Source of the DNA: Octopus vulgaris
Lineage: Eukaryota
Assembly: GCA_951406725.2 (NCBI GenBank)
Contig: OX597821.1
Coordinates: forward strand, 23,560,001-23,624,000
DNA length: 64,000 nt
Direction of reading: 5' to 3'
A program made the position numbers and the translations under genes. Numbering within the stretch: the first letter of the stretch is position 1; every line of letters begins with the position of its first letter. The notes under the pieces were generated by a model. It saw only the letters and a program-made list of their open reading frames with translations, did not search any database and was not told the DNA's origin. Of this stretch, positions 23,451 to 57,006 are shown one piece after another.

Positions 23451-23892
23451 GTGTAGGCGTGGCTGTGTGGTAAAACGTCTACTCCCCAGCCACAGGCTCG
23501 GGGTTCAGTCTCACGTCAGGCAGGCTAACCCATGTGAGCGGATTTGGTCGACAGCTTAAAGAAACACATCGTGTATATATATATATATATATATATATAT
23601 ATATATATATATATATATATATATATATATATATATATATATATATATATATATATATATATATATACATATACATATATATGTATATATATATATACAC
23701 ATATATATATATATATATATATAACATAAGGGACTAAAGCCATCTGAATATGGCTAGGGACAGGGCAGGGTGGTGGGGGTGTTACTGTTGCATTTAGCCC
23801 CAGGCGAACGTCGACGTCACCAGAAAGGCTCGACACCGTCACGGTGCCCTAAACCTGCAAAGGGAGGTAATTCCCCGATGAAGCGGAAACCA

Positions 23893-23938
23893 CACACGGA
23901 CCATGGTTTCAAGGTGTATTGCCTATCATCGGCGTGTG
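23893..23938 (-). ncRNA. Type I hammerhead ribozyme motif (U4C variant), copy 1
   Basis: Minus strand reads cacacg CCGATGA t-agg-caataca-cct-t GAAA CCATGG TC cgtgtg: 6-bp helix I, helix II, palindromic helix III, GUC site. Confidence 0.7.
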
Positions 23939-24251
23939 GTAGGCCTCCGCTTCCTCGACGAATTCTCACTATGCAGGATTTCTTATATAGATTTTCAAGC
24001 AAAATACATTTGCTGATTTCGAAAATCTGTTCGAAAGCAATAATAATTCTCTAAAAGGGATATAGACAGTAACTGCTCGATAACATAAGGGACTAAAGCC
24101 ATCTGAATATGGCTAGGGACAGGGCAGGGTGGTGGGGGTGTTACTGTTGCATTTAGCCCCAGGCGAACATCGACGTCACCAGAAAGGCTCGACACCGTCA
24201 CGGTGCCCTAAACCTGCAAAGGGAGGTAATTCCCCGATGAAGCGGAAACCA

Positions 24252-24297
24252 CACACGGACCATGGTTTCAAGGTGTATTGCCTATCATCGGCGTGTG
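24252..24297 (-). ncRNA. Type I hammerhead ribozyme motif (U4C variant), copy 2
   Basis: Identical to copy 1, 359 nt away. Confidence 0.7.
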
Positions 24298-24757
24298 GTA
24301 GGCCTCCGCTTCCTCGACGAATTCTCACTATGCAGGATTTCTTATATAGATTTTCAAGCAAAATACATTTGCTGATTTCGAAAATCTGTTCGAAAGCAAT
24401 AATAATTCTCTAAAAGGGATATAGACAGTAACTGCTCGATAACATAAGGGACTAAAGCCATCTGAATATGGCTAGGGACAGGGCAGGGTGGTGGGGGTGT
24501 TACTGTTGCATTTCCGCTTCATCGGGGAATTACCTCCCTTTGCAGGTTTAGGGCACCGTGACGGTGTCGAGCCTTTCTGGTGACGTCGATGTTCGCCTGG
24601 GGCTAAATGCAACAGTAACACCCCCACCACCCTGCCCTGTCCCTAGCCATATTCAGATGGCTTTAGTCCCTTATGTTATCGAGCAGTTACTGTCTATATC
24701 CCTTTTAGAGAATTATTATTGCTATATATATATATATATTATATATATATATATATA

Positions 24758-25168
24758 GGCGCAGGAGTGGCTGTGTGGTAAGTAGCCTGTCTACCAACCA
24801 CATGGTTCCGGGTTCAGACCCACTGCCTGGCACCTTGGGCAAGTGTCTTCTACTATAGCCTCGGGCCGACCAAAGCCTTGTGAGTGGATTTGGTAGACGG
24901 AAACTGAAAGAAGCCCGTCGTATATATGTATATATGTATATATGTATGCGTGTGTGTGTTTGTGTGTCTGTGTTTGTCCCCATAGCGTTGCTTGACAACC
25001 GATGCTGGTGTGTTTGTGTCCCCGTCACTTAGCGGTTCGGCAAAAGAGACCGATAGAATAAGTACTGGGCTTACAATAGAATAAGTTCCGGGGTCGAGTT
25101 GCTCGATTAAAGGCGGTGCTCCAGCATGGCCGCAGTCAAATGACTGAAACAAGTAAAAGAGTAAAGAG
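24758..25168 (+). mobile_element. SINE family B, full-length
   Basis: Complete consensus match. Confidence 0.9.
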
Positions 25169-25581
25169 TATATATATACGTACGTATATATATATACGTA
25201 CGTACGTATGTATGTATGTATGTATGTATGTATGTATGTATGTATGTATGTATGTATGTATGTATGTATGTATGTATGTATGTATGTATGTTTGTGCTTA
25301 TGTTCGTCCCTCATCACCGCCGGACAACCGGCGTTATTATATTTACATCCACGAAACTTATCGGTAAAAGAAATCGATAGAATTTCTAAGTACCAAACTT
25401 AGAATAAAAACAAGTACTGGGATTAATTCGTTCGACTAAAACTTTTCAAGTTGCTGTCCCAACAGTCCGATGACTGAAACATAAAATACACACACACACA
25501 CACACACACACACATGCATGCTTGTATATATATATATATATACTCACACATGTATGCTTGTATATATAAATATATATATTA

Positions 25582-53168: not shown

Positions 53169-53917
53169 AATATATGCACGAAATAAACATTTAAAAACAT
53201 GAAAAAAAAAAAAAGACATTCCTTGAATATATGTATGTACCATTTCATGACTCTCTGGCGAACGATTAAAATATTCAATTCGTGCATATATTCACCTGAA
53301 ACAGCTGTAGTGAATGAACTACTATCCGTCTGCTGTTATTTGTTTATTATTCACCTTCCTCGGACCTGCAATTAGCGTGAACCTGGAGTCTGCTGAGTGC
53401 AGTACAATTGTTGCATTTATCTGTCGATATTTATATATTTTTTTTTTACTTGTTTCAGTCTTTGGAATGCATCCATGCTACGGCATCGTCTCGAAGGGTA
53501 CTATTTCTGAGTCATGCTTTCATCTCTTCTGCCGAACAACAAAGTTACGGTGTTAAAAACAAACAAACACTGGCTGTCAAGTGGTGATGGAAACAAACAC
53601 ACATAAACCACACACACACACACACACACACGCGCGCGCGCGCACACACACACACACGCGCGCGCACACACATCATGTTGCTGTTAAACTGGGCAGATAC
53701 ATTGCTTTAACGACGATGGAGTAGCTATAGTTCATCCAACGAGCTTCTTAACATTACTACAACCCAAGAACGTACCTGCTACATTATTTTATTCGATTCT
53801 GAAAGGATAAAAGCAATGTTAACCTCAGCGGTATTTGAACTCAAAAAGTAAAGAACCGGAAGAAACGTTATTAAGCATTTTGTCCGGTTCGCTAACAATT
53901 CAACAAGCTTGCCGCCT

Positions 53918-54372
53918 TTACTCTTTTACTCTTTTACTTGTTTCCTTCATTTGACAGCGGCCATGCTGGAGCATCGCCTTTAGTCGAGCAAATCGACCCC
54001 AGGACTTATTCTTTGGAAGCCTAATACTTATTCTATCGGTATCTTTTGCCGAACCGCTAGGTTACGGGAAGTAAACACACCACCATCGGTTGTCAAGCGA
54101 TGTTGGGGGACAAACATAGGCAAACACACACACGCACACACACACACACACAAACATACACACAGACACACAAACATATACACACACACATATATACATA
54201 TATACATATATACGACGGACGTCTTTCAGTTTCCGTCTACCAAATCCACTCACAAGGCTTTGGTCGGCCCGAGGCTATAGAAGAAGACACTTGCCCAAGG
54301 TGGCACGCATTGGGAATGAACCCGGAACCATGTGACTGGTAAGCAAGCTACTTACTACACAGCCACTCCTAC
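53918..54372 (-). mobile_element. SINE family B, full-length
   Basis: Reverse complement consensus match; flanked by diverged family A pieces. Confidence 0.88.
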
Positions 54373-54620
54373 CCCTACTTTGATAATTTTTTCTAATTTT
54401 AGCACAAGGCCAGCAATTGAAGAGGAAAGGGAGGCAGTCAATGACTTCGACTCCAATATTTGACTGGTTCTTTATTTTATCGTCTCCGAAGCGGAGAGGA
54501 TGAAAGGCAAAGTTGAGCTCGGCGATATTTGAACTAATGTCGCAAAGAGCAGGACAAAATACCGCTAAGCATTCCCGTACGGTGAGTCTATATATTAGTT
54601 AATTAGTTATATTAGTTTGA

Positions 54621-54853
54621 GGGCGGCGAGCTGGCAGAAATGTTAGCACGCCGGGCGAAATGTGTAGCCGTATTTCGTCTGCCGTTAAGTGTTCTGGGTT
54701 CAAATTCCGCCGAGGTCGACTTTGCCATCCATCCTTTCGGGGTCGATAAACTAAGTACCAGTTGCGCACTGGGGTCGATGTAATCGACTTAATTCCTTTG
54801 TTTGTCCTTGTTTGTCCCCTCTGTGTTTAGCCCCTTGTGGGTAGTAAAGAAAT
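54621..54853 (+). mobile_element. SINE family A, full-length
   Basis: Consensus match; flanked by tatattagtt on both sides (possible TSD). Confidence 0.9.
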
Positions 54854-56030
54854 ATATATTAGTTAAAAACCAGGACTGAGATTCACAGATATTGAAAAAC
54901 AAAAACTAAAGACTGAAAATGTTTACAACTTCGAAAAACATCAGCAAGACTCTATTGTGGTTGGTTGGCATATATTTGCAGCCAATCACAAGAGAGCACA
55001 CAACAGCTTTTCTTCAAACACTAATTAATCACAAAACAACAGCCTGCCACTTATTTATGATAGTCTTAAGTTGTAAAAGTTTGTAGCAGACACACGACCT
55101 GATTAATTGAGAGACCAATTTATGACTGCGTGCGTGCGTATGTGTGTGTGTGTGTGTGTGTGTGTGTAAGTGTGTGTGTGCATGTGCGTGTGCGCGCGCA
55201 ACCGCGGGTGTGCGTTTGTTTGAATTTGTGTGTGTGTGTACGTACATACATACATACTTAAATGCATACAAATATGTATATACAAATACATCTCCAAAAT
55301 TTAATATATTATACATATATCTATATAATGTAAAATATGATATATCTATAAAATATTTATGAAAGCCTAGTACTTATATCGGTCTCTTAGGTGGAACCAC
55401 TGAGTTACAGGAACGTAAACACACCAACATTGGTTGTCAAGCGATGGTGGTGGGACAAACTCAGTCACAGATACATACAAACGTACATATGATCTATCTA
55501 TCTATCCACACACACACACACACACACTCACACACATACGCACATATAATATGAGCACACACACACACACACATTGTTGACATCATAAGAATTATATAAA
55601 CTTACGAGGGAAGGTGAATCCGTCGGGCGGGCACCCTTCGACTTTTCTATTCAAAACAGGCTTTGCAGCACAATATTTGCATGCTATTATTTGCAGATTT
55701 ATACGTGTGGGTTTCGAGAAATTCCATATAAATATATATATATATATATATATGTATGTATGTATGTATGTATGTACGTATTTGAAGAATAAGTCCTGGG
55801 GTCGATTTGCTCGACTAAAGGCGGTGCTCCAGCATGGCCGCAGTCAAATGACTGAAACAAGTAAACGAGTAAAAGAGTAAAGAGTATGTGTGTATGTATG
55901 TATGTATGTATGTATATATATATATATATATATATATATATGTATGTGTGTATATATGTATGTATATATATGTATATATATATATATATATATATATATA
56001 TATATATATATATATATATATATATATATA

Positions 56031-57006
56031 AATACAAAATGGGCCAAGAACGTAAAACATTCAAGTAGACGATACAAAAAACACGGACGGGTCATTCGAA
56101 GCCTCTAATCTTCAGTCAAGAACCGGATCATCCTCGCAATTTCGGCTGATTAATCTTGAGATTGCTCCGATCTGGCCAGCCCCAAGGAAAAACTAAGCTA
56201 CGAGCATTAGGTTTCTTGGAAGAAGGATCGAATGTATACGAAACAAGGACAAAAAACCGGACGATGTTACACGAATATAAATACAAAAAACAAAAAAATA
56301 ATACGAATATAAATACAAAAAGCAATAATAATAATATTAACAGGACAAAACAACAGGCGTCTTTCGACTTTAGACGAGTGAACTTAGCTGGCGTATTTGA
56401 AAAATAATGCCTTACGGCAGACGAAGAATGTGATGTTGTCGTGCCGCTGGTCCAAAGCGGAATGGCTATAGCTGGCCAGCGGTCACGTGAGAAGAGAAGA
56501 GAGAGAAAAATAGGGGCAAAGGAATTAAAGAGAGTGAGAAGAGAGAGAAAAAGAGGAACAAAGGTATTAAGGAGGGGGAGAAGAGAGAGAAAAAGTAATT
56601 AAGGAGGGGGAGAAGAAAGAGAGCGTGCCAAGGATTGGCGGGACAAAGAAAGACAGGGTCAGTGAATTGCAAAGTAAGAAAGGCAGAGAATTGTGAGAGA
56701 GTGGGGAAAGAGGAGACCGAAGAATCAAGGAGGCGAGAAAAGAGAAAGACAGAGACAGTGAAGTACAAAGTAAGAAAGACACAGAAAGTGTGTGTAGAAG
56801 TCGTACAAAGTTTAGTGGAATGTTTACATACATATGAGAGAATAAGGTGTACGTACGTCGCAATAATATATATATATAAAAATACAAAATAGGACAAGAA
56901 CGCAAAACATTCAAATAGACGATACAAAAAACACGGACGGGTCATTCGAAGTCTCTAATCTTCAGTCAAGAACCGGATCATCCTCGCAATTTCGGCTGAT
57001 TAATCT
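56031..57006 (-). mobile_element. Non-coding element with 126-bp direct terminal repeats, in (TA)n
   Basis: 56031-56156 is repeated at 56881-57006 (period 850, a few substitutions); CT-rich minus-strand interior. Strand assignment is by analogy to the PLE 3' region. Confidence 0.65.

Follow-up and report, generated by a model that had tools for sequence, protein, structure and literature searches.

The elements set in (TA)n runs across the window (by which is meant the whole 64 kb stretch of DNA analysed) are probably independent insertions made by the machinery of endonuclease-bearing Penelope-like elements (PLEs) of the Neptune/Nematis type, with double hammerheads and an unselected palindrome preference. 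For the most part they are unremarkable remains of jumping genes of a known class, which carry a small self-cutting RNA fold and land in TA repeats. The portions of the literature cited below already describe hammerheads at PLE ends, palindromic helix III, dimer cleavage, the U3-A8 core, inverted pairs, tails and TA targeting and, the architecture being known, the value of the present description lies mainly in the annotation of a TA-rich animal genome with many PLE ends and at least one putative young, high-copy retrozyme family.

The first-pass annotation had proposed a “diverse family of PLE-dependent ribozyme elements”, of which the assignment to PLEs or PLE-dependent elements with type I hammerheads was retained, the single family giving way to several independent ones. 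Homology to a PLE protein is present in one element (C), with A, B and G being assigned by insertion geometry and D, F and H on weaker grounds, and no sequence link of A, B, D, G or H to any PLE was found within the window or, for A, among 86 PLE loci. The elements are also, as annotated, unrelated to each other, sharing nothing beyond chance words of 14-15 nt, with the exception of F and the pair at 43033-43164.

Element C and the hammerhead motifs

By its sequence, element C (39011..42396) is a 5’-truncated endonuclease-bearing (EN+) PLE of the Neptune/Nematis type, the two clades not being told apart. Its plus copy (40421-42396) is joined head-to-head to an inverted copy (40420-39049) which is 99.6-99.7% identical to 41038-42396 and continues through (TA)4 and a 30-nt tail to position 39011 (a tail of 39 nt including (TA)4). 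The remnant reading frame (40417..41580, plus strand) specifies the C-terminal part of the RT, a CxxxxCxxC linker and a GIY-YIG domain with CCHH residues; in the plus copy the frame shifts near 41250, and it is lost before the C-terminus in both copies. The protein is 46% identical to residues 373-758 of P0005 (up to 60% over a 274-aa stretch) and retrieves 150 homologues at E<=1e-10, the two full-length homologues scanned both carrying Pfam RVT_1 and GIY-YIG. Among the 120 homologues listed, the CX3-4CxxC linker is present in all and the DKG motif in 86, many of them being partial and C itself being 5’-truncated. In the window copy, GIY-YIG is recognized at E 3e-4 to 7e-4, just under the Pfam cut-off, and the RT is represented by its C-terminal part only; the order of a PLE-type RT followed by a C-terminal GIY-YIG is preserved, as are the CX2-5CxxC linker and CCHH residues (CGRPNCGIC, CSGC and two histidines in frame 39941-40420). 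C further combines a hammerhead in its 3’ repeat with an inverted truncated copy and a one-sided tail of 30-40 nt. The Neptune/Nematis EN+ PLEs described by Craig et al. 2021 (PMC8557442) have in common with C, in the part of that work considered, the C-terminal GIY-YIG with CCHH, the CX2-5CxxC linker, 5’ truncation, partial tandems, an inverted truncated copy, a 30-40-nt tail at one end and a microsatellite bias, C differing from them in that it is without the N-terminal half.

The hammerhead of C (42301..42348, plus strand; second copy in the inverted arm at 39097..39144, minus strand) has the core UUGAAAA (U3-A8), a 4-bp helix II and the helix III palindrome ACCGGU, with cleavage predicted after A 42340. 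Among 16 close relatives of C with available 3’ flank, a type I motif lies 108-474 nt past the ORF in 12, and in all 12 of these helix III is palindromic. When C was aligned with 10 relatives, 84% of cells pair (100% in helix III) as compared to 36-43% in slid controls, and both sides have changed in 13 of the 14 pairs. A palindrome-blind scan of the 86 PLE loci gave 27 matches, 19 of which are palindromic, against 0-1 of 1-4 matches in five shuffles.

The first-pass description is largely borne out, if overstated. Of the seven elements it names, A, C and D (at 23724, 39011 and 32137) carry a complete type I hammerhead and two a decayed one (B at 34724 and G at 53056), the element at 43962 (F) retaining the 3’ half only and that at 56031 (H) having none. 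Their tandem or inverted ends were seen again in A, B, C, G and H, with none found for D or F, and the core variants read at that stage (U4C; A6C plus an extra A; U3-A8; canonical) are all present in the sequence. The full type I descriptor, whose thresholds were chosen after the motifs had been seen, returned five matches from three families in the window (two copies in A, two in C, and D), well above the mean of 0.22-0.25 and the maximum of 2-3 obtained from dinucleotide-shuffled sequence (60 + 60 shuffles). G is matched at a relaxed setting only (null mean 0.33-0.35), a setting which also matches inside an unrelated RT frame at 29579; B, in which A replaces G12, passes none of the three scan settings, and H has no convincing hammerhead. 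A search of the window against Rfam gave no match at the gathering score, so that no hammerhead call made here rests on a curated model. That the motifs are chance matches in AT-rich repeats is hardly credible: relaxed descriptors do return stray matches (12 rows), B, F and H fail the strict scan and Rfam is silent, but three families were found where 0.25 matches are expected, the motif of C is placed in the 3’ repeat of a PLE, and its relatives covary, so that chance is tenable at most for B, D, F and the motif at 6710, each taken singly.

Element D is a minimal type I hammerhead (32137..32174, plus strand) with core CUGCCGA plus an extra A (A6C), helix III ACGU and a 5-bp helix I. It has the features of a minimal PLE hammerhead (helix I of 4-5 bp, an extra nucleotide after A9, G10.1-C11.1, GAAA-palindrome-UH), its weak points being A6C and a helix II with three of four pairs, and its isolated fold is no better than that of shuffles (z 0.56). 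In none of B, F, G and H does a single copy combine both helices I and II with an entire core. Element B (34724..35172) is a head-to-head pair with arms of 98% identity (about 34812-34943 and 35045-35175) and about 90 nt extra at its left end; its decayed or atypical hammerhead-like motif, read by eye (34950..35022, minus strand; CUGAAGA, ACGAUCGU), has a long helix II region, the replaced G12 and a weak helix I, with a predicted site after 34955, and its inverted copy begins +12 from that site. Element F (43962..44180, plus strand) directly follows (TA)n and comprises the 3’ hammerhead half GAAA-CG-UA, without the 5’ half, a T-rich body and a TA-rich 3’ end; 3’ ends belonging to the F family also form a very short head-to-head pair (F2, 43033..43164) in a TA-rich tract. 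Element G (53056..53327) is an old head-to-head pair whose motif is split over two damaged copies, the minus copy having CUGAUGA, a 59-nt helix II region, ACAGCUGU and a damaged helix I, and the plus copy (53290-53315) an intact 6-bp helix I with helix II absent. The motifs of D, B and G may be dead. Element H (56031..57006) is defined by a 126-nt direct repeat (56031-56156 and 56881-57006, 96%), a TA run separating its body from the second repeat copy, and gave no protein match of weight.

The association of PLEs, type I hammerheads and TA is on record (PMC4209133, PMC8557442, bioRxiv 10.64898/2026.07.22.740005). The pLTR hammerheads of metazoan PLEs (Cervera & De la Pena 2014, PMC4209133) are, as here, of type I with palindromic positions 15.2-16.2 and loop 3, and in the part of that work considered include an extra nucleotide after A9 as in D, a U3-A8 core as in C, many families per genome, dispersed truncated copies, opposite-strand pairs and, in Aedes, palindromes which vary by family as among the window families. 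The U4C of A and the A6C of D are absent from the part of its alignment considered, and are known from a viroid and a phage (PMC3088659); a term search of two of its supplement files returned no cephalopod rows.

A retrozyme-like tandem unit

Element A (23724..24722) consists of a tandem part (23724-24513, sense on the minus strand), in which a 359-bp unit is present 2.2 times, and of a 212-nt inverted copy (24511-24722, sense on the plus strand) attached to it head-to-head, with copies being 99.8-100% identical, a 46-nt tail at the right end only and TA runs on both sides. Its first hammerhead (A1, 23890..23941, minus strand) has the core CCGAUGA (U4C), a U.U followed by a 3-bp helix II, and helix III ACCAUGGU, with cleavage predicted after C 23899; the second (A2, 24249..24300, minus strand) is identical in sequence, with cleavage predicted after 24258. 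Both copies carry U4C in place of the canonical core (C3 U4 G5 A6 N7 G8 A9 / G12 A13 A14), and no other letter is listed at >=4% across the motif in contigs of other sequencing runs, for which reason A is considered to have a variant core. The inverted copy begins at the equivalent of 24248, which is +10 from the predicted A2 cleavage site.

The sense monomer, 65-67% of which is paired, folds with z-scores of -4.9 (linear) and -4.3 (circular), as compared to -1.7 for the circular antisense (60 shuffles each). The minimum-energy fold of the tandem is a double hammerhead, in which helix III has pair probabilities of 0.52-0.67 between copies and 0.0 within a copy. Head-to-tail repeats of A occur in three other sequencing runs, presumed to be of DNA (X3 contributing 1328 contigs), the contigs to be expected of a tandem and of a circle being identical. 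In its size (within 150-450 bp), its non-coding sequence, its tandem arrangement and the type I hammerheads of two or more consecutive units, A fits the definition of a non-LTR retrozyme, and it has no PLE protein match; it appears to be a young, high-copy, retrozyme-like family for which self-cleavage and circles are only predicted.

Animal non-LTR retrozymes (Cervera & De la Pena 2020, PMC7229834; Li, Clavereau & Pollet, bioRxiv 10.64898/2026.07.22.740005) share with A the tandem arrangement, one type I motif per unit and self-paired RNA. The 359-nt non-coding unit of A compares with mussel units of 350-390, its GC content of 47% is likewise comparable, and axolotl HHR_Amex2 resembles A in its 2-bp helix III with tetraloop and in the basal U.U of helix II; A differs from them by its U4C core. 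It was also inserted with the full PLE signature (head-to-head, tail, TA), evidence of a kind which the retrozyme papers, in the parts considered, do not use, and as this signature is displayed directly, A is a useful case which bears on the question of which protein moves animal retrozymes. A satellite or SINE-like nature of A, with LINE/RTE machinery or DNA-level amplification acting in place of PLEs, is quite improbable: A has no homology to C or the 86 PLE loci, LINE-type RT remnants are present in the window and no RNA dataset on record contains A, but the head-to-head geometry, one-sided 46-nt tail and TA flanks are as in C and in the published PLE description, strand-asymmetric folding with a hammerhead per unit points to an RNA stage, and three diverged X4 contigs start exactly at the tail end 24037 (a weak indication).

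TA flanks and the proposed mode of insertion

TA flanks were read on both sides of the elements at 23721, 34723, 39049, 43962 and 56031, as annotated: for A at 23574-23723 and 24723-24757, for B at 34673-34723 and 35172-35189, for C at 39041-39048 ((TA)4), with a further run at 38990-39010, and at 42397-42448, for F at 43900-43961 and 44179-44273, and for H at 55973-56030 and 57011-57052. The elements near 32040 (D) and 53060 (G) indeed have TA on one side, that of D lying about 115 nt upstream with no TA run within 1.6 kb downstream (its 3’ side) and that of G on the left; around a weak, decayed motif at 6710-6760 (E 0.11), TA runs are absent to a distance of 1 kb. The window holds 112 TA runs of >=8 nt, and five of the eight homology-defined element ends lie <=5 nt from such a run, against a background of 0.6% (four of eight if runs of >=12 nt are required). 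The predicted (TA)n enrichment is thus present in the window. SINE ends adjoin TA as well (8/41, likewise enriched; Fisher p 0.023 for the difference, ends within one insertion not being independent), and the effect is therefore not specific to these elements, so that of the proposed targeting of TA microsatellites the adjacency above chance stands and the specificity does not. No TA was seen at the 10 listed of 78 loose ends of A contigs in other sequencing runs.

A rather unlikely reading is that adjacency does not reflect targeting, the runs having grown from TA-rich 3’ ends of the elements, or the repeats having accumulated or survived in TA-rich ground. The abundance of TA runs and the SINE ends agree with it, as does (TA)4 within both tandem copies of a PLE relative (L003), which is therefore element-encoded, C and L081 having the same T-rich/(TA)4 order. 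Against it, the tail end of A, C and L003 is not TA-rich inside the element yet adjoins TA, A has long TA on both sides and TA-like sequence of its own of <=3 nt, and TA targeting is on record for Naiad, Hydra and linker-bearing PLE clades.

For insertion by PLE machinery, the geometry shared by A, B, C and G, each a head-to-head pair whose 3’ ends face outward, and the one-sided tails of A (46 nt) and C (39 nt) are informative. An inverted duplication at 61297-62939, which is not a PLE, has no TA flank, indicating that foldback geometry alone is not diagnostic. A PLE protein is reported to nick both strands of AT-rich DNA and to start reverse transcription at two nearby internal RNA sites, as a result of which a tail is left behind. 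As (TA)n is identical on both strands, both nicks could prime, and two 5’-truncated cDNAs would then be joined head-to-head. A would be a non-LTR retrozyme using a C-type PLE protein in trans, and B, D, F and G would be truncated or decayed 3’ ends of other families. Poseidon PAc of Anolis (Frangieh et al. 2024, PMC11167929) similarly has two 3’ end positions separated by the tail, an AT-rich target, and both strands cut and extended as proposed here; it belongs to another clade, and its RT starts at a site without homology to the target. In C and L003, by contrast, the inner end position is occupied by (UA)4.

Two leads follow. The (UA)4 which precedes the tail is encoded by the element, and the start of the short inverted copies lies 10-12 nt beyond the cleavage site. 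If true genome-wide, they would provide an in vivo role for PLE hammerheads and a simple base-pairing route to TA targeting. The combined proposal is unlikely as a whole. In it, the U4C retrozyme A would be moved by a Neptune-type PLE protein, an element-encoded (UA)n directly ahead of the tail would anneal to nicked (TA)n at one of the two sites where reverse transcription starts, and reverse transcription would be halted by ribozyme-cut RNA or by the folded ribozyme, accounting for the ends of the short inverted copies of A and B 10-12 nt beyond the hammerhead site; in clades whose palindromes are 6-10 nt long, divergence of helix III would further restrict cross-pairing among co-resident families. 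For the one PLE studied in vitro, insertion did not need hammerhead cleavage.

Helix III palindromes

All five helix III palindromes named in the first pass occur in the sequence. The statement that they differ by family holds among A, B, C and G and does not for D and F, which both have ACGU. The further idea of a family-specific dimerisation code is not borne out, unrelated families often sharing one palindrome, as do D and F, and ACCGGU recurring in relatives of 41-49% identity. Such a code, were it real, would represent a novel form of self-recognition for selfish RNAs; the present evidence leans against it, and we consider it very unlikely that selection has made the palindromes of co-resident families differ and has thereby confined cleavage to pairs of like RNAs. 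In its favour, the clade of C has 8 different palindromes across 13 elements, L085 and L086 (one assembly, 48% identical) differ, and the energy model gives homoduplexes more stable than the best heteroduplex (kcal/mol without initiation: A -16.3/-8.2, C -13.4/-8.2, B -15.1/-5.7, G -16.2/-3.1, ACGU -6.8/-1.6), although the latter follows from any two different palindromes.

Against a code, ACCGGU is found in C and also in 4/12 relatives whose amino-acid identity is 41-49%, one metagenome being the source of two (L001/L003, 49% identical) and L010 likewise having this palindrome, L022/L027 (one assembly, 41.5%) both have ACGU, and ACGU accounts for 11 of the 19 palindromic matches in the 86 loci. 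The part of the PMC4209133 alignment considered includes two ACGU families each in Schistosoma, Ixodes, Lottia, Strongylocentrotus and Xenopus, and many invertebrate retrozyme motifs are reported to cleave as monomers. Tandem copies can moreover pair in cis, so that no code is needed. The palindrome would allow two hammerheads of one tandem transcript to form each other’s helix III, and a helix III built between copies would tie cleavage to multimeric RNA; its sequence may drift among palindromes, with length set mainly by clade, and own-kind preference would be a by-product of palindromes rather than a selected code. The A x C heteroduplex is predicted to be stabler than the ACGU homoduplex, and three of the four co-resident pairs examined (D/F, L001/L003 and L022/L027, the fourth being L085/L086) share their palindrome.

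Element C and the retrozyme-like element A

On the evidence of its sequence, element C (39049) is a Penelope-like element (PLE), truncated 5' and composed of two arms which are 99.6-99.7% identical and whose 3' ends face outward. A stop-free stretch of 274 aa (40432-41253) gave 150 protein matches at E<=1e-10, with an identity of up to 60%; both full-length homologues of C that were scanned contain RVT_1 as well as GIY-YIG, the CX3-4CxxC linker is present in 120 of the 120 C homologues listed, and the nuclease part of C itself gives a GIY-YIG match just below the curated cut-off. 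In the portion of Craig et al. (PMC8557442) consulted, a linker of this type is assigned to Neptune and Nematis and tied to a microsatellite bias, and these elements are described as truncated 5', partly in tandem, accompanied by an inverted copy next to them, and extended at one end by a tail of 30-40 nt; C has every feature listed there, from the linker through to the one-end tail. The left end of C continues through (TA)4 and 30 further bases, to 39011, and the element is therefore 39 nt longer than the start assigned to it in the first-pass annotation. A search of viral contigs found no relative. Among the PLE loci compared, L081-L086 are animal-type PLE contigs that had been binned with bacterial genomes (Bacteroidota, SUP05, Campylobacteraceae), which is probably host contamination.

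Element A (23721) is retrozyme-like, with a 359-bp unit (GC 47%) present in 2.2 tandem copies joined to a 212-nt inverted copy; its right end exceeds the left by 46 nt, as in the PLE tail. Only on the hammerhead strand is the predicted fold of the monomer far stronger than that of shuffled sequence; for two tandem A motifs, the minimum-energy fold is a double hammerhead in which the two copies pair with each other to build helix III. Of the 24 listed sequencing runs (7 studies, four coded organisms; four of the runs are the possible source sample), 20 contain two thirds or more of the words of A, with 1328 contigs in run X3, and its head-to-tail joint is present in X3, X13 and X1. Across 23800-23963, spanning the ribozyme, no alternative letter reached at least 4% among the differences listed, which do not include those near contig ends; U4C is therefore a state of the family rather than decay of the copy in the window. 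Both U4C and A6C are known in nature as variants of low activity, which PMC3088659 records in a viroid and a phage. No report of either in PLEs was found in the portions of the literature covered. Such variants may already be listed by Lunse et al. (2017).

Element A has a variant core and an informative insertion signature. It agrees in size, tandem layout and helix features with the animal non-LTR retrozymes as described in the consulted part of PMC7229834, and a preprint (bioRxiv 10.64898/2026.07.22.740005, in part) derives such retrozymes from PLE repeats. No RNA run is among the runs listed with A; the RNA label of run X4 is a guess, and a 390-nt X4 contig considered as evidence of expression was set aside, given that tandem DNA or a circle fits equally. 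Depth differences along the unit in X3 were left out, since contig depth cannot rank parts, and no flanks were seen at the loose ends of A contigs (10 of 78 shown). X4 contigs 14-18, being relatives of about 90% identity, match unit A only at 24021-24134 and then diverge, which suggests that this segment, surrounding both 3' end positions, is a conserved module that several families use.

PMC11167929 describes a PLE protein which, on AT-rich DNA, cleaves the two strands and extends each of them, a reverse transcription that starts at two internal RNA sites bounding the tail, and a hammerhead that is protein-assisted and dispensable for insertion in vitro; hammerheads with a short palindromic helix III cleave as dimers, as stated in PMC4209133 and the review PMC6765202. 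Symmetric priming on (TA)n would generate head-to-head pairs, A would use the same PLE machinery, and tandem transcripts would self-process via double hammerheads; together with what is observed directly (anatomy, protein class of C, covariation and copy number of A), they make up a mechanism that is considered probable. The observation is real and mostly known, the elements being new representatives of known element types. No octopus PLE hammerhead was found in the literature searched, and supplements of PMC7229834 and PMC4209133 may include cephalopod families.

Hammerhead motifs in the window

The TA flanks, tandem or inverted ends, palindromes and core variants described in the first-pass annotation were all found where it had placed them, but the hammerheads in its seven named elements are fewer than implied: three are complete (A, C and D, the last at 32040), two decayed, one half and one absent. 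The type I descriptor, whose thresholds were fixed after the motifs had been seen, called for helices I and II, GAAA and a palindromic helix III, and tolerated up to one mismatch in the core and any covariation of the 3-8 pair; it matched twice in A, twice in C and once in D, and nowhere else across the 64 kb. These five matches compare with means of 0.22 in 60 whole-window shuffles and 0.25 in 60 block shuffles; three hammerhead families against 0.25 expected corresponds to p ~0.002, with post-hoc thresholds.

Element G (53060) consists of two damaged copies complementing each other, the minus copy keeping core and helix II and the plus copy a 6-bp helix I; in the hammerhead-like motif of B (34723) an A replaces G12, and F (43962) opens directly after (TA)n with only GAAA-CG-UA. 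No hammerhead was found in H (56031). A long-helix candidate on its plus strand (56146), from a first relaxed scan that yielded many stray rows, was discarded as C3 lies opposite U8 with two extra nucleotides, and at its minus-strand end the predicted fold is not superior to that of shuffled sequence (z 0.85). An Rfam search of the window gave no match at the gathering score and no ribozyme-like match for A or H at E<=10; the weak matches (150 of 291 listed) were rejected as microRNA-type, on microsatellites.

A covariance model built on the C clade recovers C by construction and places A only at E 0.8, and is therefore clade-specific; apart from L010, its sole addition is a weak motif located at 6710-6760. 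This decayed hammerhead-like motif (minus strand; E 0.11) has CUGAUGA, a perfect 5-bp helix II and the palindrome ACAUGU, with A replacing G12 and a broken helix I, and no TA run lies inside 1 kb of it.

Helix III palindromes

From 86 PLE loci fetched, 16 close relatives with 3' flank were examined by eye over 520 nt. The type I motif is present in 12 of these, with a palindromic helix III in all 12 (ACCGGU four times, ACAUGU twice, six others once each); helix I or II is imperfect in L005, L013 and L081. An alignment of C with 10 relatives, from which L005 and L013 were excluded for length, contains compensatory substitutions in both helix I and helix III as well as at the 3-8 pair, and a scan without the palindrome requirement returned 27 matches, 19 of them palindromic (11 being ACGU), as opposed to 0-1 in shuffles. 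Together these results argue that palindromy is under selection, as is already reported. Palindromes of 4 and 6 nt appear to track the two main groups of a quick tree, in which the L002 row (wrong frame) was disregarded. Almost no helix II is seen in L013 (approximately 1860-1895; 3 nt between the core halves), and the palindrome of L005 (approximately 1925-1965) is 10 nt long.

The proposal that the palindrome is a family code, by which RNAs cleave only with their own kind, failed its simplest test, given that unrelated or distant families share palindromes: ACGU is common to D and F, and to L022 and L027 (one assembly, 41.5% identity), and ACCGGU is common to C and relatives at 41-46% identity, and to L001 and L003 (one metagenome, 49%). 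Among the co-resident pairs of relatives compared, L085 and L086 (48%) are the only one with differing palindromes. In a published alignment (PMC4209133 supplement, in part), five genomes have families with a palindrome in common, whereas those of Aedes differ. In an energy model the homoduplex is favoured over the heteroduplex by 5-13 kcal/mol, so that A, B, C and G would be unlikely to pair with one another; the A x C heteroduplex (6 pairs, -8.2) is better than the ACGU homoduplex (-6.8). No paper proposing such a code was found in the literature searched.

TA runs, element ends and neighbouring repeats

The window (GC 38%), whose SINE sequences resemble those of octopus, is 21% simple repeats by the masking used here and contains 112 TA runs of at least 8 nt. 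The TA association was assessed within the 64 kb, with ends defined by self-homology, for elements which the first-pass annotation had picked partly by their TA flanks. Of the ends of A, B, C and G, 5/8 lie at most 5 nt from a TA run of at least 8 nt (4/8 for at least 12 nt), as do 3/3 ends of H, compared with 0.6% of 6000 random non-repeat positions. The enrichment claimed for the elements is thus far above background, but it is not theirs alone: 8/41 outer ends of the numerous SINE copies also abut TA runs, and the difference between the two sets is modest (Fisher p 0.023).

Of the 10 relatives whose flank reaches 120 nt or more, 4 have (TA)4 or longer 53-120 nt past the cleavage site, with ~1.3% expected for each; TA runs are absent altogether from L001, L002 and others. 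Both tandem copies of L003 carry (TA)4, after which comes a 31-nt tail; the final copy terminates in ATATAT at the contig end, the same order as at the left end of C. The TA sequence is therefore partly element-encoded and partly target. An element-encoded (UA)4 is supported by C and L003, and less clearly by L081.

The inverted copy starts at +10 in A and +12 in B relative to the predicted cleavage site; no start at +10 to +12 was found in C, G or F2, a short head-to-head pair (43033-43164) of the same family as F. These two of five pairs were picked after the fact, with a roughly estimated chance of 1 in 15 by luck, and the pattern is not significant. F starts at -9, a position that cleavage and stalling of the reverse transcriptase at the fold would explain equally well. 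Any inverted repeat was seen in 10 of the 86 fetched loci, and head-to-head pairs are few.

A fragment occurs in three copies (31924-31972, 32968-33016 and 43827-43871; 86-89%), two of them directly left of the TA runs preceding D and F; it has AACACACGA-like letters in common with the C tail, and the copies may represent the tails of additional PLE families. An imperfect palindrome of 134 bp (38851-38984), which stops 5 nt short of the TA run next to the C tail, looks like a MITE-like element or another head-to-head pair. At least two SINE families are abundant (e.g. 24759-25168 and 25583-25810), the first with a TA/TG microsatellite between its two halves. A broken non-LTR retrotransposon on the plus strand (29213-31505; RVT_1 E 6e-26, zf-RVT E 4e-7), which we take to be L1/Tx1-like, has a TA run near its end, at 31626, and a decayed LINE (57400-60450, plus strand), presumably RTE-like, gives a weak RVT_1 match. 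A mariner-type remnant on the minus strand (2099-2925; Mos1 HTH match E 1e-8) has inverted ends with 74% similarity and TA runs 31 and 4 nt off. An inverted duplication of 98% (61297-62939), combining a LINE-like 3' end with the CA repeats and portions of SINEs that flank it, has no TA flank and is not a PLE, and a degenerate 23-bp minisatellite of about 19 or more copies occupies 5318-5936.
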